Origin: Candidatus Spongiisociaceae bacterium
Lineage (GTDB): Bacteria > Actinomycetota > Acidimicrobiia > Spongiisociales > Spongiisociaceae
Assembly: GCA_965219685.1 (NCBI GenBank)
Contig: CBDCOH010000002.1
Coordinates: 3,232,001 to 3,296,000, forward strand
Length of the DNA: 64,000 nucleotides
Direction of reading: 5' to 3'
Shown here: positions 5,374-51,425 of the stretch, piece after piece
Numbering within the stretch: position 1 is the first letter of the stretch
Layout: each line of letters begins with the position of its first letter
Made by a program: the position numbers and the translations under genes
Notes under the pieces: model-generated
The model's input: only the letters and a program-made list of their open reading frames with translations
The model's database searches: none
What the model was told of the DNA's origin: nothing

Positions 5374-6372
5374 CTACGGATCGAGGCCCAGGAGTCTCTC
5401 GGGATTGGTCCTGACCATCTTGCGGATGTCCTCGGCCGGCAGGCCCAGGTCCAGAAGGCAGGCGATGAACTCGCGCATGCCTTCGACCGGCGCCGGCAAC
5501 GTGTAACCACCGAAGTCTGTCGCCAGGATGCAGTGATCGGTTCCCACCTGCCGGATCTGTTCGGCGGCCTTCCTGATGCCACCACTCGCCTCACCCGTCA
5601 TCTCCTCGTCCGCCGCGTATTCCAACTCGACGTAATAGTGGGTCTTGGGATCGACGTGGTGTGCGTGTGGGCGCCCAGGGTGTACTCGATGAAGGCGCCC
5701 CTCCGGGCCATGTACCGGAGTTGGTCTGTCGAGGCGACCTGGGTGACGGCGGCGGCTACCAGCACCTTGCCGATCCCGTACTCGTGGGCTAGTTCGACCA
5801 GGCGGATGGCCTCATCGGGCGAGACGTGGCCCGTGTTCAGGAAGACATGGGGATGGTCCGCGATCAAGCTCAGGATCTCGTCCAGTTCAGGCCCCACCGG
5901 CCCTTCCACGGGGATCCGGATGGCCCGATCCACCTCCTCCCTCCTGAATCCCGGGTATAGGTCCTTCAGGGGCGTGAACTTCCCCTCCACGATCCGACCC
6001 TCCCTGGAGGCCTGGTAATAGGTGGAATGAGCGCCGAAGCTGATGAACCTGGCGCCATCCCCGTACCCGATCGCCGTCTTGACAGCCCGAGGGTTCAGAC
6101 CGCCGTACGCGGTATTGAGGATCAGACCTCCGTAGACGGTGAAGTCGCGAACAGCCCGGTTCACGATCCAGGCGAATCCCGTTCGTCATCTGGAAGACAT
6201 CCATCAGCACGATGGCCCGCATTCCGGCGTCCCGCGCTTCTGTGGCCGCCTCGATAGGGTCCAGCCGTCTCGGACTGCTGGGCAGGTGCGGCGTGGCGTG
6301 AACATGGATGTCGATGGCGCCTTCGAGTAGCTGCCGGGTCAACTCGAAGGAACGGTTCTCGGGTAGCAGCAT
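5374..6372 (-). pseudogene. Amidohydrolase-like (DUF6282-type) gene split by two 1-nt frameshifts (real or sequencing error)
   Basis: IDIHVH in first frame, GGLILN..GGLNP and NTGH in second, LATDFG..NPERLL in third; shifts near 6176 and 5648. Confidence 0.75.
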
Positions 6373-6388
6373 GCAGTTCGGCCGCGGG

Positions 6389-6820
6389 CTAGACCATCGT
6401 ATCGCCACCCCGTGTCCGGCCGGGCTGGTTGACCAGATGGGTGGCGGCGTTATCGAAGTGGTCGAACATGACTGCCCGGATCCCGGCCGGAAGGGGGAGG
6501 CCGGTGCCGTCGGCGAGGGTTGTCGCATCAAGAGAAGCTGTCATGTGCGCCATCCAAGCGTCTCTCTCGGCCCGGCCGATGGGAAAGTGCATGTGGCGCA
6601 TCCGCAGGCGGGGATGGCCCCGCTCCTCGCTGTAACGAGGCGGCCCACCCCAGTACTGGGCCAGGAAACCCGCCAGCCGCTCCCTGGATCCCCGCAGGTC
6701 GCTCGGATACATGGGCCGAAGCAGCGGGTCTTCTTCCACGGCGTTATAGAAACGGTCGACGAGATCGTCGAAGAACCGCTGTCCACCCACCGCCTCGTAC
6801 ACGGTTGGCGGAGCCTTCAT
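6389..6820 (-). CDS. glbO: Group II truncated hemoglobin
   Basis: YEAVGG, LRPMYP, FLAQYWGGP..YSEERGHPRLRMRH, ERDAW motifs. Confidence 0.9.
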   Translation of the reverse strand: MKAPPTVYEAVGGQRFFDDLVDRFYNAVEEDPLLRPMYPSDLRGSRERLAGFLAQYWGGPPRYSEERGHPRLRMRHMHFPIGRAERDAWMAHMTASLDATTLADGTGLPLPAGIRAVMFDHFDNAATHLVNQPGRTRGGDTMV

Positions 6821-6958: not shown

Positions 6959-8624
6959 CCTGAATCCACCGATGGGCGGCCGTGTCGGTCGGTGGGTCGG
7001 TGGTCGGGGGTTAGTGATAGGGGTGATGTTCGGGGTTTAGGTTGTTGGTAGGGGCATTTTAGTGGTTTGTGGGGTAAGTGGCGGGTGTAGGAGGGACGGT
7101 TAGGAGCGTTCCGGGCGTGTGTGGCTGGGGTTTGGGTGGTTGGTTCCGTTTGCGGGGGCCTGTTGGGTGGGTTCAGCAGCGCTGGGGCAGCGTCCGGAGG
7201 TTAGCGAGGGTGGTCTGGTAGGTGTGCGCCCAGGGCCATCGGGCGGGTAGTCGCAGTATGGGGCGTCCGCTGTGGTTGACCACCCGTGCGGGAATCCCGA
7301 AGATGCGGGTGCGGATGGTGCGTCCACGGATCAGCCGCCCGGCCGGCTGTGTTCGTCCCAAGATGGCTATCCAGCGGTAGAGGTTATGCGCTAGAGCGGC
7401 GCAGAGAAGCCAGGCTTGGTTGGCGGCGAACCGTCCCGATGGTAGGTGAGCGAGACCCCCGGAGTCTTTGAGGTCGCGGATGGCGAGTTCGCAGACCGCA
7501 TGGTGTCGGTGGTGGCGGTCCGCTTGTGGGGCAGGCGCATGCGAGTTGGTCACGAACGCGTGGTAACGCCAGTCGGGCCAGAACTCTTGCTGGGCGCCGG
7601 TGAGGCGGGTGCGGCGCACCACGAGGCGTACTCGGCGTTTCTGCTTACGTTTGCGGGGGTTGGTCATCTCAAGTGTGGTTTCCCCAACTTGTGCCCGGCC
7701 GCCTTCGGGATAGTCGATATCTGCCCAGTCGTCTTCGTCGATAGCCGCTATAGCGGCTAGGACATGGCGGAGTTGTGGGCAGGTGATCGACCAGCCCACC
7801 CCGAGGTGGTCCAAGGTTGCCAACATGGCATAGGACCAGAAGCCCGAATCGGCCCGAACCTCGATCCGTCCCCGAGCCCCGGCCCGTCGCGCGCACCGGA
7901 TCGTCTCCTGCGCGAAATGGGCCACACCCCGCCGCGATGCTCCGGCCCTTAGCCGGGCACCCACCGCCTCTCCTGTATCGGCCCGGAACGCCAACAGAGA
8001 GTGATAACCCAACTCTTTGGTGTACCCATAGGAGGCGCCCTCCTTGCCCCTGCCAGACACCCCACAGATCGTCGAGTCCAAATCCAAGGTCAGCGGTCTC
8101 TTCCCCGGGCCGGCACCCGCTGCCCACGCACGACCCAGCGCCACGCCCAAAACCTTGTTCAACTGGCGGGTGTGGCCCCAGGTAAACGACCGCAGGAAAG
8201 TGCCCACCGTCGAAGGTGCCATCACCTCATGGGACAACACCCGATGCGTCGACCCCGCCCGCAGCCGATCCACATGATCGATGTGAGAGCCCCCCACCAG
8301 CATCGCGGACACCAACGTCAAGGTCTTACGACCCGGCCGCGCGCCACCCACCCGACCATCCAAACGGACCACGTCATCCACCAACTCTTCCAACCCCAGA
8401 CGGCTCACCAACGTCGACGCCGCCAACAGACCCCCATCGGCCACCAACCCCTCATCGTCGAAAACCACCTCATACCGGTCAACATTGTGCGATACTCCAC
8501 CCACAGGAAGTGCCTCCCGATTCTGGACCTAAACCACTTTCGCTAACGGTTATTGTCCCAGATCAGAGGCACTTTCCACGTCTATACCACCCCCCAACCC
8601 AAACACCCACCCGGTGGATCCAGG
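6959..8624 (-). mobile_element. Complete IS1380-family insertion sequence
   Basis: TIRs CCTGAATCCACCG / CGGTGGATCCAGG (1 mismatch); 5-bp target duplication CTTAG at 6954-6958 and 8625-8629. Confidence 0.92.
7173..8504 (-). CDS. IS1380 family DDE transposase
   Basis: LDLDST, YGY..GYH, VRADSGF, CELAIRDLK, PSGRFAAN.AWL, LRLP..WPW motifs. Confidence 0.92.
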   Translation of the reverse strand: MGGVSHNVDRYEVVFDDEGLVADGGLLAASTLVSRLGLEELVDDVVRLDGRVGGARPGRKTLTLVSAMLVGGSHIDHVDRLRAGSTHRVLSHEVMAPSTVGTFLRSFTWGHTRQLNKVLGVALGRAWAAGAGPGKRPLTLDLDSTICGVSGRGKEGASYGYTKELGYHSLLAFRADTGEAVGARLRAGASRRGVAHFAQETIRCARRAGARGRIEVRADSGFWSYAMLATLDHLGVGWSITCPQLRHVLAAIAAIDEDDWADIDYPEGGRAQVGETTLEMTNPRKRKQKRRVRLVVRRTRLTGAQQEFWPDWRYHAFVTNSHAPAPQADRHHRHHAVCELAIRDLKDSGGLAHLPSGRFAANQAWLLCAALAHNLYRWIAILGRTQPAGRLIRGRTIRTRIFGIPARVVNHSGRPILRLPARWPWAHTYQTTLANLRTLPQRC

Positions 8625-10917: not shown

Positions 10918-12927
10918 CTATCCGGCCGCGGCTGGGTAGTGGTCGACCAGGTTGGAAGCGTCCAGGAACTGGTGATCGATGAAGATCTCCCGGCCCGGGT
11001 CCTCACCCATCGCCAACGCGATAGCCGCCGGAACCGCCAGACTCCCGTACCGGTCCGGGAAGTAAGCCACATCACCGATCCACTGCGGATTGTTCAGAAT
11101 GTCAGGCCACGCCGAAGCATCCGCCCCATGACCCACGATGAACACATGCTCACCACGACCCTGAGTCTCCGCCGCCGCGAACGCAGACGCCGCATCCGGA
11201 TCACCGAAACTCGACATCACCAGAATCACCGTCGCGTCCGGCACCGTCGTCAAAATATCGGTGAACTGCCGCCGCACGTTCTCCAAGGCATCCGATCCGC
11301 CCTGACGCTTGTCCACAACCCGGAACTTCGAATCAGGAACCGCACCGCAAACACCCTCGAAGCCCTCACGCGAACCACCAGCCCGCTGAGCGTTGATATC
11401 AGGCGAACTCAGATTCTCGATCGACACGTACAAGTCGAACGCGCAACCGAACTCCGACTGGGCGAAATCACCCAAACCGGCACCGGCCACCAACCCGGCC
11501 TCGTAACCGTTCGACCCCACGAACACCCGCTCGCACGGACCCTGCGGAACGTCCATCGTCACCGTCGGCAGATCACCATAAGCCTCACAAACCGCCTCAG
11601 CAGCATCCGGGAAGAACTGCCAGTTGATCACCGCGTCCAAACCCTGCGCATCCAAAGTACGAGCACACTGGATCGCCGTATCCGTAGAGAAATTCGCATC
11701 ACACTCGAACAACTCCACCCCGGCCGCCGCAGCCGCCTCACGAATACTCTCCGTCACGATGAACACGAACGGATCCGCATCACCACCAGAGATATAACCC
11801 AACTTGATCGGCTCATCAGTCGTCATCGCCGACTCATCAGCCATGCCGGCCGCGGCTGGGTAGTGGTCGACCAGGTTGGAAGCGTCCAGGAACTGGTGAT
11901 CGATGAAGATCTCCCGGCCCGGGTCCTCACCCATCGCCAACGCGATAGCCGCCGGAACCGCCAGACTCCCGTACCGGTCCGGGAAGTAAGCCACATCACC
12001 GATCCACTGCGGATTGTTCAGAATGTCAGGCCACGCCGAAGCATCCGCCCCATGACCCACGATGAACACATGCTCACCACGACCCTGAGTCTCCGCCGCC
12101 GCGAACGCAGACGCCGCATCCGGATCACCGAAACTCGACATCACCAGAATCACCGTCGCGTCCGGCACCGTCGTCAAAATATCGGTGAACTGCCGCCGCA
12201 CGTTCTCCAAGGCATCCGATCCGCCCTGACGCTTGTCCACAACCCGGAACTTCGAATCAGGAACCGCACCGCAAACACCCTCGAAGCCCTCACGCGAACC
12301 ACCAGCCCGCTGAGCGTTGATATCAGGCGAACTCAGATTCTCGATCGACACGTACAAGTCGAACGCGCAACCGAACTCCGACTGGGCGAAATCACCCAAA
12401 CCGGCACCGGCCACCAACCCGGCCTCGTAACCGTTCGACCCCACGAACACCCGCTCGCACGGACCCTGCGGAACGTCCATCGTCACCGTCGGCAGATCAC
12501 CATAAGCCTCACAAACCGCCTCAGCAGCATCCGGGAAGAACTGCCAGTTGATCACCGCGTCCAAACCCTGCGCATCCAAAGTACGAGCACACTGGATCGC
12601 CGTATCCGTAGAGAAATTCGCATCACACTCGAACAACTCCACCCCGGCCGCCGCAGCCGCCTCACGAATACTCTCCGTCACGATGAACACGAACGGATCC
12701 GCATCACCACCAGAGATATAACCCAACTTGATCGGCTCATCAGTCGTCATCGCCGACTCATCAGCCATGGCTTCGGTGGTGTCAGGCGCCGCCTCGGTGA
12801 CGGCAGGGGCTTGCGTGTCCGCCGGCGCAGGGGCCTCGTCATCGTCGCCGCAAGCCGCGGCGAACAGCAGGAAAACCGAGACGATCACCAGCCCGGGTCT
12901 GAACCGATACCACTTCCCTCCACGCAT
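10918..12927 (-). CDS. Sugar ABC substrate-binding lipoprotein with two identical binding domains
   Basis: GGAGG RBS, lipobox FAAAC, Ala/Thr/Pro linker, RbsB-like domain present twice. Confidence 0.85.
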   Translation of the reverse strand: MRGGKWYRFRPGLVIVSVFLLFAAACGDDDEAPAPADTQAPAVTEAAPDTTEAMADESAMTTDEPIKLGYISGGDADPFVFIVTESIREAAAAAGVELFECDANFSTDTAIQCARTLDAQGLDAVINWQFFPDAAEAVCEAYGDLPTVTMDVPQGPCERVFVGSNGYEAGLVAGAGLGDFAQSEFGCAFDLYVSIENLSSPDINAQRAGGSREGFEGVCGAVPDSKFRVVDKRQGGSDALENVRRQFTDILTTVPDATVILVMSSFGDPDAASAFAAAETQGRGEHVFIVGHGADASAWPDILNNPQWIGDVAYFPDRYGSLAVPAAIALAMGEDPGREIFIDHQFLDASNLVDHYPAAAGMADESAMTTDEPIKLGYISGGDADPFVFIVTESIREAAAAAGVELFECDANFSTDTAIQCARTLDAQGLDAVINWQFFPDAAEAVCEAYGDLPTVTMDVPQGPCERVFVGSNGYEAGLVAGAGLGDFAQSEFGCAFDLYVSIENLSSPDINAQRAGGSREGFEGVCGAVPDSKFRVVDKRQGGSDALENVRRQFTDILTTVPDATVILVMSSFGDPDAASAFAAAETQGRGEHVFIVGHGADASAWPDILNNPQWIGDVAYFPDRYGSLAVPAAIALAMGEDPGREIFIDHQFLDASNLVDHYPAAAG
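10922..12769. repeat. In-frame 924-bp tandem duplication (10922-11845 and 11846-12769)
   Basis: Both 308-aa translations are identical; no nucleotide difference seen by eye. Confidence 0.95.
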
Positions 12928-13075
12928 TTGCCTACCTCCCGTAGCACTGCTTGCGGGCATCGTGAACTCGCCTCGATACCACCCGAGTGACCGTAGCATC
13001 AGCGCGGACACCACCACCGGCCAGAGGCGATCTGAGTCATCGAACTCTCGATGTTGTGGTTTCGGACCACCAACC

Positions 13076-13656: not shown

Positions 13657-14196
13657 ATGGCTCAGAAGCGGCCAGCGTCCGCCCGTCGCAAGTGCTTCAT
13701 CTCGTATCACGATGCCAACAGGCGTGCGGTCGAGAACTTCGTAGCCATGTTCAGGGACGTGATCATTGCCCGGACGATTGGCATCACCGATGCGGACCCT
13801 TGGGTGGACTCCCGTGATGCCGACTACATCAAACGGGTGATTCGCGAGAAGCACCTGACAGACTCGACAGTGACCATCGTCCTGATAGGTAGGTGCACGT
13901 GGGCACGCAGGTTCGTTGACTGGGAGATAGCATCTTCGCTCAGAAACGATCCCAACAACAAGCGGAGCGGCATTCTAGGTATCAAACTGCAGTCAGGTGT
14001 GACGATACCTGCTCGTCTCCGAGACAACCTGCCTTCCAATAACGGCCCAGGGTATGCACGTATTAGATCTTATCCCACGACAAGTGACGCTCTACGACGC
14101 TGGGTAGAGGATGCCTTCACGGCCCGTACAACACGGCAGTCTTATATCAATAACAGACGATCCCTACGGAAGCGAAATGGCACTTGCCGGAAGTGA
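13657..14196 (+). CDS. ThsB-like TIR-domain protein (MTH538/DUF1863 type)
   Basis: KCFISYH, YIKRVIREKHL.DSTVTIVLIG..TW.R.FVDWEI (catalytic Glu present), SGILGI; AT-richer than flanks. Confidence 0.88.
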   Translation: MAQKRPASARRKCFISYHDANRRAVENFVAMFRDVIIARTIGITDADPWVDSRDADYIKRVIREKHLTDSTVTIVLIGRCTWARRFVDWEIASSLRNDPNNKRSGILGIKLQSGVTIPARLRDNLPSNNGPGYARIRSYPTTSDALRRWVEDAFTARTTRQSYINNRRSLRKRNGTCRK

Positions 14197-14217
14197 AGTG
14201 GATCGTCACTAGACCCC

Positions 14218-14679
14218 TTATGTCATGAGCCCTAATCGGAGAAACAACAATACGAGTCCCGCGACTACTATCTGCACCCCGTAAGGGAGGGCCAGAGTCC
14301 GGGACCGGAACACCTTCCAGCGGCCAATCCTCTCTTCAAGACCCGCTTCCTTAACCACGCTCATGAACTTCTCTCCGGCCGCGTCCATGAAGTACGGATC
14401 CGGCTCATCTGTTGTCCTTACATGCTCGTAGAACAATCTGAACAGCCGCTCTGACCTAAGGAAGTCTTGGTCGAGTATCCAGAAGGCCAGGGTGACCGCT
14501 GCACTGACGACGGCCAACTGGCAGACCCTCTGCTGCAGCGCAAAGCTCAGCAGCACTGCAGTGAGAGCAAAGCTCCAGCGCTTGGTGAGAAACGTCGCTC
14601 CGCTCAGGCGATCGATGACCCGCTGGATCATCTCCAGGTGTCTCACCCGAGGTTCGCCGAAGGACTCGTAGTCGTGCAT
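14218..14679 (-). CDS. Small 3-TM membrane protein (HLEMIQ..I.R....F..K.W type), putative TIR-associated effector
   Basis: N-terminal HLEMIQRVIDRLS, three hydrophobic segments, FWILD..FL..ERLFR..Y. Confidence 0.7.
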   Translation of the reverse strand: MHDYESFGEPRVRHLEMIQRVIDRLSGATFLTKRWSFALTAVLLSFALQQRVCQLAVVSAAVTLAFWILDQDFLRSERLFRLFYEHVRTTDEPDPYFMDAAGEKFMSVVKEAGLEERIGRWKVFRSRTLALPYGVQIVVAGLVLLFLRLGLMT

Positions 14680-14774
14680 CGTCCCCGCGAATGGTAGCGG
14701 TGCGTTGTTTCGAGTGCAGGCGGACTCGTGGAGGACGAATCAAGGGCGGCCCTTCATCGACCTGGGATCGGAGG

Positions 14775-16049
14775 TCAGGGTTTCAGCGCTGTGAGCGGCG
14801 CCACCGCCACACCGTCGTCCGCCTGGTAGCCGGGCCCGAACGCGGTCAGCACGATTAGCCGAGCAGGGTCTCCCCGCCGAGTGGTGTCTACCCGGGAACG
14901 CAGGGCTCGCAGGGAGCCCATGGCCTTCTTGACCGCGGACCCCCCACCGAGCTTGATCTCCACAGCAGCCCACCGGCCGTCGAGGCCATCGATGATGGCA
15001 TCGGCCTCCAAGTCGTTCTCGTCCCGGTAGTAATAGAGGCGCGCCCCTAAATGCTGTGCATAGACCCTGAGGTCACGGATTGCCATCGACTCGAACAGCA
15101 AGCCCATCATCTCCAGATCCCGCTCGAGGACGGGCGGGGAAGCTGCCAGAGCTGCTACCGCAAGCGCCGGATCGACGAAGTATCGCTTGGGGGTCTTCCG
15201 CAAACGGACCGACGACCTGAGGTGGGTGGACCATGCGGGAAGTGGCTCGATCACGAACATGCGCGCCAGTTCGTCCAGGTATGCCCTGATGGTGGAACGG
15301 GCAGGCGCACCCGCGCCTCCCTCGGCGAGATCGGCCAGCAGTGTGGCATTGGAGGCCGTGGTGGCCTCGTTGCGCGCGAGGGACGCGACCAGCCTCATCA
15401 CGAGCAGCGGGTTACGCCTCACCCCCGCCACCCGGGAGATGTCGAAGCGGGCTATGTCGTCGAGGTAGTCACGCAGGCGAGCCTGTGCCAGGCGCGGCGC
15501 CAGCCCGATCATGCGGGGCCATCCTCCCCGACAGATGAGGGAGGCCACATCGCCGATGGTCCGGCCCGAATCTCCCGCCCGGCAACGGTCGCCCGCCATC
15601 AGCGACGCCAAGGCCACCTCTCCGCTGGAGTCACCGGACTCCCAGAGCGACATGGGTCGCATCCGCACGCGGGCAACTCGTCCGGCGCCCGAGTGCTCGG
15701 TGATGTCATCCGGGGGATTCTGCGAGCCGGTGAGCAGGAAGTGTCCGAATCCCCCCCTACGGTCGCAGGCATGGCGCATCGGGTTCCAGATGCCGCGGAC
15801 CAACTGCCACTCGTCGAGCAGTCTCGGTTCCTCACCCGCCAGTATCGACTCCGGATCCACTTCAGCGGCGGTCCGTAGGGCCTCCGAGCCGTCAAGCATG
15901 ATCTCGCTGCGCGCGAACCTCTGCCCGGTCCAAGTCTTGCCGCAGCCTCTGGGACCCTCGATGAGCACCGCGGGCGCTGAAGCCAGCGCGTCGGCAACCT
16001 CGTCGTCCACTACTCGAGCCAGGTATCCGGGATTGCCGATGCCGACCAT
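14775..16049 (-). CDS. AAA_14-type ATPase with DUF4143 and C-terminal PD-(D/E)xK-like segment
   Basis: GPRGCGKT, LLDEWQ, LTGS, GGWP, PKRYFVD, GLLFES, YYRD..EAD..VEIK. Confidence 0.9.
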   Translation of the reverse strand: MVGIGNPGYLARVVDDEVADALASAPAVLIEGPRGCGKTWTGQRFARSEIMLDGSEALRTAAEVDPESILAGEEPRLLDEWQLVRGIWNPMRHACDRRGGFGHFLLTGSQNPPDDITEHSGAGRVARVRMRPMSLWESGDSSGEVALASLMAGDRCRAGDSGRTIGDVASLICRGGWPRMIGLAPRLAQARLRDYLDDIARFDISRVAGVRRNPLLVMRLVASLARNEATTASNATLLADLAEGGAGAPARSTIRAYLDELARMFVIEPLPAWSTHLRSSVRLRKTPKRYFVDPALAVAALAASPPVLERDLEMMGLLFESMAIRDLRVYAQHLGARLYYYRDENDLEADAIIDGLDGRWAAVEIKLGGGSAVKKAMGSLRALRSRVDTTRRGDPARLIVLTAFGPGYQADDGVAVAPLTALKP

Positions 16050-16087: not shown

Positions 16088-16173
16088 CTACACTCCGCTT
16101 TGCGGGAATTCTATACTCCAATTTACGGGATATTCATACTCCGCTTTACGGGGATTCTATACTCCACTTTGCG
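16088..16173. repeat. 23-bp tandem array, about 3.7 units (consensus CTATACTCCRCTTTRCGGGRATT)
   Basis: Units at 16088, 16111, 16134, 16157, upstream of the DUF4143 ATPase. Confidence 0.9.
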
Positions 16174-17675: not shown

Positions 17676-18806
17676 CTACGACAGTCGGGCGTCTCCCGAT
17701 CGCGCGATTCGCCGAACCCAGTCACGGGCGAAGGACTGCGCGAAGTCCACCTCACCTCGCGCATTGGCAACGACCATGCCCCCCTTCCGCAGCCTGTTGC
17801 GGTAGACACGGGCGTAGTCCGCACTCTTGCCAAGCCGCTCCGCTATGTCTGAAAGGCGAGATACTTCGTCATCCTCGGCCATCGCACTCAGAAAGCGTCG
17901 GTCCACGTTCGACAGGTCCCTCCACACCGGCTCCAGGATCAGCTGCTCGGCGCGGCGGCGCGCCACGGAGATACCAACCGCCACGTCCTCGGACCAGATT
18001 CCTTCGGCTGGGCTCCGGGCTTGCCTCCATGAGTGAAAACCGACGAGTTGAACCATGAACGGATAACCGGAGGTGGCCGCTACGGCCTCGGCCAATGCGG
18101 CTGGTTCGATCGAAGAGCCCGATTCCTCGATCGGGCGAGCGATCGCATCATGGGTGGCAGTTGCTGATAGGCGGCCGATCTCGAACCGGGTGCACCGCTG
18201 GAAAAATGTGGTAGCCGTGCCCGACAGGACGGTGTCCTCGATCAGGTTCAATCCGGCGCCCAGGAAAGCAACCGGACGCTGCTCCCGCCGGGTGACGTGC
18301 TGGATGATCGCCCCGAAGGCTCGGACCTCTTCCACGTCACCGTTGTGGAGTTCGTCGAGCGTCACCAGAAGACCTGCATTCTTCGAGCCAAGATGGTCGC
18401 CGAGTTCACTGAGCAACCTGCGCAGCGACCCGGCTCGAACATCTGCGGGTTCGCCCAACTCCACCTTCACCGGACCGAGACCGACCCCGGTGATCGGCCT
18501 CCCTCTTCCTCGTAGGGATTGAAGCAATACCCTTGCGGCATCCTCCAAGCGTTCCAGTATGCCCGTGGTGGACATATCATCGGCAATCACCTCCCACCCG
18601 CGGTCGGCAGCCCGATCCTCCAACGCGTTCAGCAAAACGGTCTTACCCATTCCGCGGGCAGCAGTGATCAATGCGGTGTAGTCGGGATGTCTGGGGCCGA
18701 TCTCGATGGCCTCGTCGAAGTCACCGATGATCCGGTCGCGACCGGCCAGTAAGGGCGGAGAGGCGCCGAAAGTCGGAGAGAATGGGTTCTGCCGCACATC
18801 CGCCAC
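17676..18806 (-). CDS. AAA+ ATPase with C-terminal winged HTH
   Basis: NPFSPTFG..P..LAGR, ARGMGKT, VTLDELH, GYPFMVQLVG, C-terminal LSDIAERLGKS..Y..VYRNRL. Confidence 0.85.
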   Translation of the reverse strand: MADVRQNPFSPTFGASPPLLAGRDRIIGDFDEAIEIGPRHPDYTALITAARGMGKTVLLNALEDRAADRGWEVIADDMSTTGILERLEDAARVLLQSLRGRGRPITGVGLGPVKVELGEPADVRAGSLRRLLSELGDHLGSKNAGLLVTLDELHNGDVEEVRAFGAIIQHVTRREQRPVAFLGAGLNLIEDTVLSGTATTFFQRCTRFEIGRLSATATHDAIARPIEESGSSIEPAALAEAVAATSGYPFMVQLVGFHSWRQARSPAEGIWSEDVAVGISVARRRAEQLILEPVWRDLSNVDRRFLSAMAEDDEVSRLSDIAERLGKSADYARVYRNRLRKGGMVVANARGEVDFAQSFARDWVRRIARSGDARLS

Positions 18807-18851: not shown

Positions 18852-18903
18852 TTTTCTGAGCTTTTCGCTTTTTCTGAGCTTTTCGCTTTTTCTGAGCTTT
18901 TCG
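18852..18903. repeat. 18-bp tandem array x3 (TTTTCTGAGCTTTTCGCT)
   Basis: Units at 18852, 18870, 18888 (last one 16 bp), 45 bp upstream of the ATPase start. Confidence 0.95.
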
Positions 18904-19001
18904 ATTCTACAGAGCGGACCGCGAGCCACTTCTCTCTAGCCGCTGCTTGATTCGGACAGATCAGGTAGGCCTGTTCCCCGGTCTCCGCCAGGTAACCGGT
19001 C

Positions 19002-49475: not shown

Positions 49476-49787
49476 GTGTTCAGTCCGGTGACGATGGAGG
49501 CTGCGCGGCTGCTGGGCAGTCGGGTGGCGTTGGCGCGGCGGGAGCGGCGTTGGACGCTCGCCGAGCTCGCCGAGAGGGTGGGGGTGTCGGTTGTCACGAT
49601 CCGCAAGGTGGAACGGGGTGACCCGACCGTCGCCTTGGGCACGGCCCTCGAAGCGGCCACGCTCGTCGGGGTGACGCTGTTCCACGAAGACCCGGTTAGG
49701 CGCTCCCTGGAGGTGGAAGCCGTCCAAGCCAGGCTCGCGATGTTGCCGGCCTCGGTGCGCCGCGCCGCCGTCGATGACGACTTCTGA
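49476..49787 (+). CDS. XRE-family HTH protein, HipB-like antitoxin
   Basis: RRERRWTLAELAERVGVS..TIRKVERG; overlaps hipA start. Confidence 0.85.
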   Translation: MFSPVTMEAARLLGSRVALARRERRWTLAELAERVGVSVVTIRKVERGDPTVALGTALEAATLVGVTLFHEDPVRRSLEVEAVQARLAMLPASVRRAAVDDDF

Positions 49788-51066
49788 CCGGAGCCCGGAC
49801 CCTTTGGGCCCTTTCGTGTGGGTTTGGCTGCCCGGGGCGACCGAGCCGGTCGTCGCAGGAAGGCTGATCGACCGCGGCCCGGTCGTGACCTTCGTCTACG
49901 GACGGAGCTACCTGCATCGGCCTGACGCAGTGGCTCTTTACCTGCCGGAGCTTCCGCTGCGGCCCGGGGAGGTGTGGCCACTGTCGGGCGAGATCGCCGG
50001 CTGCGTGGCCGACTCGGCCCCCGACGCCTGGGGGCGGCGGGTGATCGAATACCGCCGCCCCCGCTCCGGAGCGGACCTCTCCATCCTGGGCTACCTCCTG
50101 GAATCGGGCTCGGACCGTATCGGGGCGCTCGACTTCCAGGAGTCGGCCACCCGTTACATCTCCCGCTCCGGCGACGGCGCGTCGTTAGCAGACCTGGTCG
50201 AAGCCGCCGACCGGGTGGAGAGGGGCGTGACGCTCACGCCTGCCCTGGACCGGGCTCTGCTGCACGGAACCTCTGTGGGCGGGGCGCGACCAAAGGCGCT
50301 GCTCACCGACGGTGACCGACGGCTGATAGCCAAGTTCGCCTCGTCCACCGACCCCTATCCGGTGGTCAAAGCCGAGTACGTCGCCATGGAACTGGCCCGC
50401 CGTGCCGGGATCGATGTAGCGCCTGTCGAACTCGCGGAGGCTCTCGGCAGAGATGTGCTGCTCGTCGAACGATTCGACCGCACCGTCGATGGACGAAGGC
50501 GCATGATGGTGTCGGCCCTAACGATCCTCGAGTTGCACGACGCGCAAGGCATCGCGGGTCGTTACGCCACCTACACCGACCTAGCCCACCGGGTCCGGTC
50601 GCGCTTCACGTCCCCTGACGCGACGCTGCGAGAACTGTTCTCGCGCATCGTCTTCAACATCCTCGTCGGCAACACCGATGACCACGCCCGCAACCACTCC
50701 GCCTTCTGGGACGGCGCCCACCTCACGCTGACCCCGGCCTACGACATCTGCCCGCAGACCCGCACGGGCGGCGAGGCGGCCCAGGCGATGGCCTTCGGCG
50801 CCGACGGCGACCGTATGAGCCAGGTCGCGCGTTGCATAACGCACGCGGGCCATTACCACCTGACCCCGCAACATGCCCGGGAGATCATCGACCACCTGAT
50901 CACCCTGATCCACACCGACTGGGACGAAGTCTGCGACCTCGCCTCTTTGCCCGCCGCCGACAGGCAACGCCTCTGGGGACGCCAGTTCCTCAATCCCTAC
51001 TCCTTGTACGGGTACGACACCGTGCATGCGTTGAAGAACAATCTGGAGGCTGCTCACCGCCTTTAG
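49774..51066 (+). CDS. hipA: HipA-family kinase toxin
   Basis: DSAPD.WG, DRIGALDF, GTSVGGARPK, ERFDR, GNTDDHARN, PAYD. Confidence 0.93.
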   Translation: MTTSDRSPDPLGPFVWVWLPGATEPVVAGRLIDRGPVVTFVYGRSYLHRPDAVALYLPELPLRPGEVWPLSGEIAGCVADSAPDAWGRRVIEYRRPRSGADLSILGYLLESGSDRIGALDFQESATRYISRSGDGASLADLVEAADRVERGVTLTPALDRALLHGTSVGGARPKALLTDGDRRLIAKFASSTDPYPVVKAEYVAMELARRAGIDVAPVELAEALGRDVLLVERFDRTVDGRRRMMVSALTILELHDAQGIAGRYATYTDLAHRVRSRFTSPDATLRELFSRIVFNILVGNTDDHARNHSAFWDGAHLTLTPAYDICPQTRTGGEAAQAMAFGADGDRMSQVARCITHAGHYHLTPQHAREIIDHLITLIHTDWDEVCDLASLPAADRQRLWGRQFLNPYSLYGYDTVHALKNNLEAAHRL

Positions 51067-51425
51067 CCGACATCGCCCTGTATCGTCAACACCCGGCTGG
51101 CGGGCTCTCGAAGCGTACTGTTGTGTGGGTCGTGAGGGCGGATGCTATCGATCTCTACCGCTTCGGTCCGCTCGGCGTGGTAGAGGTCCCGACGAAGTTG
51201 CAGGTTCAACCAGAAGGCCGCAGAAGTGCCGAAGAATCGTGAGAGTCGCAGAGCGGTGCTTGGCGTGACTCCGCGTTTCCCACGGACAACTTCGTTGACG
51301 CGCTGATAGGGCACCTGGATTGCGTTTGACAGATCCCTCTGGGTCATCCCAAGGGGCTTGAGGAACTCTTCCAGCAGCATCTCGCCCGGATGCGTCGGCT
51401 CTCGGTCGGTCGGGATTCGAACCAT
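51063..51425 (-). CDS. higA: HigA-family antitoxin
   Basis: HPGEMLLEEFLKP, RVNE..GKRGVT, ALRLSRFFGTS..FWLNLQ. Confidence 0.92.
   Translation of the reverse strand: MVRIPTDREPTHPGEMLLEEFLKPLGMTQRDLSNAIQVPYQRVNEVVRGKRGVTPSTALRLSRFFGTSAAFWLNLQLRRDLYHAERTEAVEIDSIRPHDPHNSTLREPASRVLTIQGDVG

Follow-up and report, generated by a model that had tools for sequence, protein, structure and literature searches.

Among the described Thoeris anti-phage systems, the closest to the locus considered here is type V. According to the available text of the preprint by Yirmiya et al. (10.64898/2025.12.03.692087), its effector ThsF is a DUF2270 protein with three membrane helices, modelled by AF3 as a heptamer with positive pockets and found in approximately 1.2% of genomes; type V systems, those tested being from Bacillus, defend and respond to 3'cADPR, an isomer of cyclic ADP-ribose (cADPR). 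Type VII, with the SLATT protein ThsH, and type VIII, with the TPR/CMP-hydrolase ThsI, use canonical cADPR. A HIT gene, thsC, accompanies 2.4% of Thoeris systems and is proposed to act in making or breaking down the signal (PMC8565338, in its accessible part). TIR genes are also found in PDC-M50, one of the PDC systems that Payne et al. (bioRxiv 10.1101/2024.01.29.577857) offer, as far as the accessible text goes, as predictions for future testing. Here we describe a TIR gene and a small membrane-protein gene that face each other in a 64-kb stretch ("the window") of the 4.39-Mb contig CBDCOH010000002.1 from Candidatus Spongiisociaceae bacterium (Actinomycetota; GCA_965219685.1). Judged from its sequence, the pair is catalogued in kind, not new: it is probably a two-gene Thoeris-type signalling system against phages, of the PDC-M50 kind and most likely type V (ThsB and ThsF), carried as a low-GC (guanine plus cytosine) cassette beside an unrelated ATPase gene.

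Both halves of PDC-M50 were matched by adjacent genes of the window, 21 bp apart, the assignment being made from PADLOC hidden Markov model matches. No paper naming PDC-M50 was found in the literature. The first gene (13657-14196, plus strand, with AGGAG 8 nt ahead of the ATG) encodes a 179-aa TIR protein of the ThsB type (PF08937/DUF1863), the predicted phage sensor and signal synthase. It matches PF08937 ThsB_TIR at E 1.5e-16 in Pfam and, in PADLOC, ThsB1 at E 1.4e-11 and PDC-M50B at E 1.5e-10 (profile positions 2-101 of 162), and its predicted model (predicted local distance difference test, pLDDT, 90) matches the TIR/ThsB structures 8FZ9, 9B7D, 8WCF and 6LHY at E < 1e-3. Residues W89-E90 line up with the YE motif of the solved ThsB chains 6LHY and 9B7D, and both are invariant among 32 aligned relatives. 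The glutamate, which we take to be the catalytic residue, is encoded at 13924-13926 (plus strand). The ThsB-like TIR with an intact WE glutamate proposed in the initial annotation of this DNA is thereby supported by family, alignment and fold.

The second gene (14218-14679, minus strand) encodes a 153-aa protein of the PDC-M50A family, the predicted oligomeric membrane effector. Four PDC-M50A models are matched, the best at E 5.4e-25 (profile positions 5-130 of 134, residues 11-146). Hydropathy analysis (Kyte-Doolittle, 19 residues) gave three peaks of 1.38, 1.88 and 2.01, the first segment being just moderately hydrophobic, and the predicted model (pLDDT 95) contains helices at 9-50, 53-89 and 127-149, arranged as a long hairpin of helices and a third helix; three membrane-spanning helices, as in type V Thoeris, are thus predicted by hydropathy and model alike. 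Of the conserved positions of the family (alignment A1, 133 sequences), the protein retains the two invariant ones and each of the 14 nearly invariant ones. The conserved polar residues H14, Q19, R24, K33, W35, D70, E77, R78 and R81 are carried by the parts of helices 1 and 2 that extend beyond the membrane segments and, in the model, would all face one side, the cytoplasmic one. The family has 2081 representatives at E ≤ 1e-3, is common on plasmids of Klebsiella (40 records) and Escherichia (36), and has one allele group present in 33 of 5426 E. coli genomes. The relatives of the two window genes P0002 and P0160 (88% and 86% identity) each come from a 1688-bp contig, which suggests that the TIR and membrane genes are kept together.

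The link to type V runs through DUF2270. This was the top Pfam family among the 133 members, with 13 matched at E ≤ 0.1 (best 1.4e-5) against 5 for the next family; in a further search of 19 proteins 9 matched it, all 9 matches beginning at profile position 23, and one member (P0038) exceeds the DUF2270 cut-off (25.2 vs 25). SLATT was absent from the 25 of 56 Pfam families listed for the 133 members, which include every family matched by at least two of them. NCBIfam had no family for the TIR or the membrane protein, and none of its families matched more than 2 of the 133 members. Shared with type V are a ThsB TIR, a small three-helix, distantly DUF2270-like effector lacking a separate ligand domain, and a wide spread across phyla. 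From these matches we infer that the family corresponds to ThsF; the Yirmiya preprint was the only relevant paper found on DUF2270, ThsF or ThsJ.

Other searches with the membrane protein were less specific. No match was returned by the PDB sequence search with the family profile, nor by Foldseek with the model at E ≤ 1e-3. The best VIA Z, 9.3, was for helical hairpins and bundles of a generic kind, among them ESCRT-III and coiled coils, and a likeness to ESCRT-III was rejected; this unspecific outcome gives no ground for claiming a new fold. In the ESM Atlas the 0.95 clusters were unnamed, the named ones gave leads only at ≤ 0.90 (8xMP, DUF3278), and DUF2270 was not shown. Longer forms of the family (414-2000 aa) were not found, which is weak evidence as HIT fusions of about 300-340 aa fall below that range. 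In a comparison by organism, six organisms carrying the family do not appear in the accession table for E. coli TIR-I to TIR-IX, tested two-gene TIR systems, in the accessible part of PMC11350192 (Wang et al. 2024).

The converging stop codons are separated by 21 bp (14197-14217), too short for a HIT gene, and the membrane gene is preceded on its own strand, 95 bp away, by the ATPase gene; the gene positions and gaps of 21 and 95 bp given in the initial annotation are borne out by the open reading frame (ORF) coordinates. Its remark that the TIR and membrane genes are AT-rich also holds. Their GC is 0.554 and 0.571, respectively, and that of the pair is 0.562, against 0.652 for the window, where only 0.3% of 1023-bp segments, the pair itself counted, show GC as low. 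A scan for terminators gave two sites, none inside the 21-bp gap or between the ATPase and membrane genes, and a promoter scan found no sigma-70-type promoter. The flanking genes belong to sugar transport and metabolism, and the surroundings form no defence island. The GC, the named relatives of the TIR and the tree of membrane proteins indicate that the host is probably an actinobacterium. PADLOC models of ThsA, SIR2, SLOG and Macro were unmatched in 60 window-covering and 5 local ORFs; thus, within these 64 kb, no SIR2-SLOG or TM-Macro ThsA of the type I and II systems was found, as the initial annotation had stated. Likewise, when every window ORF of at least 70 aa was searched with local profiles, no second TIR and no HIT gene came up.

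Evidence that the two genes work together comes from the neighbourhoods of the membrane family. Loci were collected from GTDB by a degenerate motif scan, the motif matching 119 of 150 representatives. The scan gave at least 118 stretches, and the counts below use the 80 with flanks, from many phyla, 38 short ones being excluded; they form a partial, non-random sample from which close relatives of the window locus are absent (39% identity over 140 aa at best). In 52 of the 80 loci listed, a TIR or TIR-like domain is encoded not further than about two genes from the membrane gene, 41 being recognized by local profiles and 10 plus 1 by Pfam; within these, L007 (local profile) is not confirmed by Pfam and the Pfam call in L041 is DUF4062. 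Local TIR matches numbered 49 in 108 kb at less than 0.7 kb from the membrane gene and 2 in 410 kb at more than 2.5 kb, so that TIR density adjoining the gene is approximately 90-fold above that further away. Of 11 plasmid or phage loci inspected manually, 8 also have a TIR gene adjoining the membrane gene, among them Terribacillus, E. coli and Vibrio phage records. The remaining three (L001, L126 and L125) showed no TIR beside the family member or gave an ambiguous result, L125 having a partial local TIR match while its record annotates a TIR; a twelfth locus with a weak match (L127) was excluded. The co-occurrence of membrane-protein homologues with TIRs, on which the initial annotation had made its proposal depend, is thus found, and the three-helix protein is, on these gene neighbourhoods, very probably the membrane effector of the TIR.

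Individual loci of the family show further arrangements. In L125 (4989-6295) the TIR gene seems to be split into two ORFs beside IS26. The membrane gene occurs in three small Vibrio phage records of 14 kb (L006, 1347-2635), in the opened one of which an integrase gene is followed by a ThsB gene and then the membrane gene. In three Streptomyces loci (L001, L012, L029) it is the last gene of an operon with an OmpA-domain gene, no TIR being found, and these operons may represent another partner system using the same effector. In two Poribacteria loci (L045, 6134-6616; L071, 6110-6667) the TIR is replaced by a nucleoside 2-deoxyribosyltransferase-like gene (PF15891), which immediately precedes the membrane gene and is possibly an alternative signal maker. 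A large CHAT-domain gene, the membrane gene and a HIT gene follow one another in Streptomyces L085 (2218-6928), and in Acidimicrobiia L020 (4840-10217) the membrane gene stands after an MmeI-type methylase gene, again with no TIR found.

The initial annotation had called the tail-to-tail layout unusual. Across the 52 loci the nearest TIR gene was co-oriented with the membrane gene in 48, convergent in 3 and divergent in 1, and the layout is therefore rare overall. However, all three convergent GTDB loci are from Actinomycetota, where they make up 3 of the 5 loci with a TIR, against 0 of 47 elsewhere (Fisher p 4.5e-4, related loci not being independent). On the plasmids L002 and L004 a TIR-HIT pair faces the membrane gene, in L030 a second, cNMP-binding TIR does so together with a HIT gene, and in L064 (Actinomadura) a TIR faces it directly, as in the window. 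A quick tree of membrane proteins (88 rows) places the window protein in an 18-row actinobacterial branch, supported by a Shimodaira-Hasegawa-like approximate likelihood ratio (SH-aLRT) of 85, which is not strong. This branch holds all 7 convergent loci, the window included, and all 7 other HIT loci of the tree. As convergent loci recur in it, the tail-to-tail layout is a trait of the branch rather than a one-off. Gene orientation is not mentioned in the accessible text of the Yirmiya preprint.

HIT proteins are the second trait of this branch. Within it the window protein is sister (SH-aLRT 88) to TIR-HIT-effector operons and HIT fusions, and 12 of its 15 remaining loci with known context carry HIT, in contrast to the window. 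Among the GTDB loci listed, HIT was found in 5 of 11 from Actinomycetota and 0 of 69 others with a HIT profile built from three actinomycete proteins. Loci tying HIT to the membrane family include nine with a TIR (L002, L003, L004, L016, L030, L078, L128, L129 and L130) and three in which no TIR was found (L001, L046 and L085). The actinomycete HIT is either a separate gene or an N-terminal fusion (Gordonia, Mycobacteroides, Rathayibacter), and the histidine motif was intact in the four sequences inspected. These proteins may mature or destroy the signal. The relatives of the membrane gene thus resemble HIT-accessory Thoeris in carrying a HIT gene or fusion by the TIR, whereas the core described in the accessible part of PMC8565338 is ThsA with ThsB. 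A description of TIR-HIT paired with this membrane effector was not found in the literature available in accessible form.

Several observations weigh against reading the window pair as a Thoeris-type system, most likely of type V. The membrane protein itself has no DUF2270 match, nor any Pfam family at E ≤ 1, and 120 of the 133 family members lack a DUF2270 match at E ≤ 0.1. It differs from the family majority by G34R, N28A, S29T, P62V and Y72D. No TIR was seen in 28 of the 80 loci listed. In a quick tree with 59 TIRs taken from loci of the membrane family, the branch of the window TIR (SH-aLRT 88) holds just one of them (L008), two other branches containing 36 and 18. None of the 8 closest plasmid relatives of the TIR that were opened (33-41% identity) has the membrane family within 3 kb; these TIRs stand in multi-TIR clusters beside SLATT, TPR-S, SLOG or unnamed genes. 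In layout and TIR branch the window is unlike most loci of the membrane family. The available preprint text further reports a second type V system that 3'cADPR does not activate, and the family might instead correspond to ThsJ (type IX) or to an effector left untested there.

The placement of the TIR may reflect a swapped signal or a chance pairing, and the signal may differ. If it was swapped, a ThsF-like effector would have been re-tuned to a TIR from the SLATT/TPR-S/SLOG branch, with canonical cADPR or another molecule as the signal and the HIT step dispensable. Besides the TIR tree, the substitutions at family-conserved positions and the missing HIT gene fit this reading, as does the type V variant unresponsive to 3'cADPR in the Yirmiya preprint. 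Genes for SLATT or TPR-S proteins, which serve as effectors in types VII and VIII with cADPR as the signal, adjoin the TIR in 2 of the 8 plasmid relatives, although Pfam identifies neither SLATT nor TPR in the window effector. On the other hand, single TIR clusters mix effector types according to the accessible part of the same preprint, so that the TIR branch does not fix the signal; L008 combines a TIR of this very branch with the membrane family in an ordinary operon, and the plasmid neighbours were read for TIRs only 33-41% identical to that of the window. We consider a swap unlikely. A broader version would make TIR, HIT and effector, often facing or HIT-fused, the normal composition of the actinobacterial ThsF-like branch and the window pair a derived form that has dropped HIT, taken up another TIR, changed its pocket residues and adopted a different signal. 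HIT would in this version cut the pyrophosphate of cyclic ADP-ribose to yield the actual ligand, which would parallel in bacteria the step to pRib-AMP known from plants. As a whole this must be called quite unlikely; if true, the window pair would be a natural sensor swap within one effector scaffold.

Alternatively, an orphan TIR could have been inserted by the ATPase gene separately from the effector, itself an orphan or in decay, with no joint function or with partners elsewhere. The opposite strands, the unequal GC at third codon positions (0.63 for the TIR gene vs 0.73 for the membrane gene), the atypical TIR branch and the loci listed without a TIR are in line with such a history, as is a relative (P0011) in which the ATPase and membrane genes are likewise adjacent. 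Conversely, neither ORF is disrupted and each keeps every invariant residue, a TIR is unlikely to land 21 bp from a family with a TIR neighbour in 65% of the loci listed, and convergent TIR layouts recur in the same branch, with a direct one in L064. Chance juxtaposition is, in our estimation, highly doubtful. The two-gene system of the PDC-M50 kind stays our preferred explanation, and the undescribed, atypical module of the initial annotation is not upheld; instead, both genes match the PDC-M50 pair and the family is DUF2270-like as in the validated type V, so that the pair largely corresponds to a system already described.

By analogy with other ThsB proteins, phage infection would activate the TIR, and Glu90 would convert NAD+ to an isomer of cyclic ADP-ribose, which is 3'cADPR in the case of the type V TIRs tested. 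The signal would then occupy pockets between the protomers of a ring of the three-helix protein. The ring would disturb the membrane, and the infected cell would stop or die before phage progeny form. For B. thuringiensis ThsF, the accessible preprint text (10.64898/2025.12.03.692087) reports signal-triggered toxicity, the pore mechanism being only modelled; ring, pocket, pore and activity of the window pair are proposed by analogy with it. Since a diffusible signal would link the two genes, co-transcription would be unnecessary and the facing layout would cost nothing.

As one more actinobacterial member of a catalogued and probably validated system, the locus is ordinary. Two side results are of some use. 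Detection rules that require a single strand would miss facing pairs, which recur in Actinomycetota. The branch offers a natural series on one scaffold, from TIR plus effector through TIR, HIT and effector and the HIT fusion to a HIT-less pair with another TIR, by which two points become testable: the activator of type V variants unresponsive to 3'cADPR, and the role of Thoeris HIT proteins. The lead worth retaining is this actinobacterial TIR-HIT-effector series, with the HIT-less window pair as a derived case.

The initial annotation had also included the neighbouring ATPase-nuclease (14775-16049, minus strand; 424 aa) in the module. Its AAA_14 (E 2e-11) and DUF4143 (E 6e-31) domains were recognized by Pfam, with a Walker A motif at residues 32-39, and the D..ExK tail claimed for it was indeed seen as E-x-D...E-x-K at 348-366, a PD-(D/E)xK-like ending. 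In PADLOC it matches PDC-S01 (E 8e-64 over residues 9-422). According to the accessible part of PMC12988326, PDC-S01 is a single-gene candidate, an ATPase fused to a PD-(D/E)xK domain that ranks fourth most common across prokaryotes, while most PDCs await validation; the window ATPase has the same architecture, nothing about it being unusual. A three-gene module, in which the ATPase-nuclease would act as sensor or as a second effector and its gene would share a transcript with the membrane gene, would accord with their shared orientation, the 95-bp spacing with no terminator-like site between them, and the matching arrangement in P0011, where the membrane protein shares 56% identity with that of the window. 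Against it, a relative of the ATPase was found in 1 of the 80 loci listed, 2.8 kb away and weak (E 2e-5), by a single-sequence profile that may miss distant relatives. Moreover, the ATPase gene has host-like GC (0.669), and as PDC-S01 is a very common stand-alone candidate it is likely a chance neighbour; the adjacency in P0011 fits a local insertion site. We find the three-gene module scarcely credible, and the AAA_14/DUF4143 gene, which has no neighbourhood link to the TIR pair, is probably a bystander and not part of the system.

Further features of the window were recorded in passing. At least three imperfect 23-bp tandem repeats (16092-16173), possibly operator sites, immediately precede the AAA_14/DUF4143 gene, in the gap that separates it from a divergent isomerase gene. 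Tandem repeats of 18 bp (18852-18915) stand upstream of a second ATPase gene (17676-18806, minus strand; AAA_16 with a weak C-terminal helix-turn-helix, HTH). An intact DDE_Tnp_1_4 transposase gene (7173-8504, minus strand), which we take to be of the IS1380 type, is located some 5 kb away from the pair. At 5374-6531 (minus strand), three ORFs that overlap in different frames read as fragments of one protein, possibly through frameshifts or sequencing errors. The region 49476-51425 carries an HTH gene, a 430-aa gene with weak PDC-M03A matches and, on the other strand, a small 120-aa gene, presumably resembling HipBA and HigA-type toxin-antitoxin genes. Lastly, a sugar-binding ABC protein (10918-12960, minus strand) is built from a tandem pair of nearly identical periplasmic binding domains, which would point to a recent duplication or an assembly artefact.

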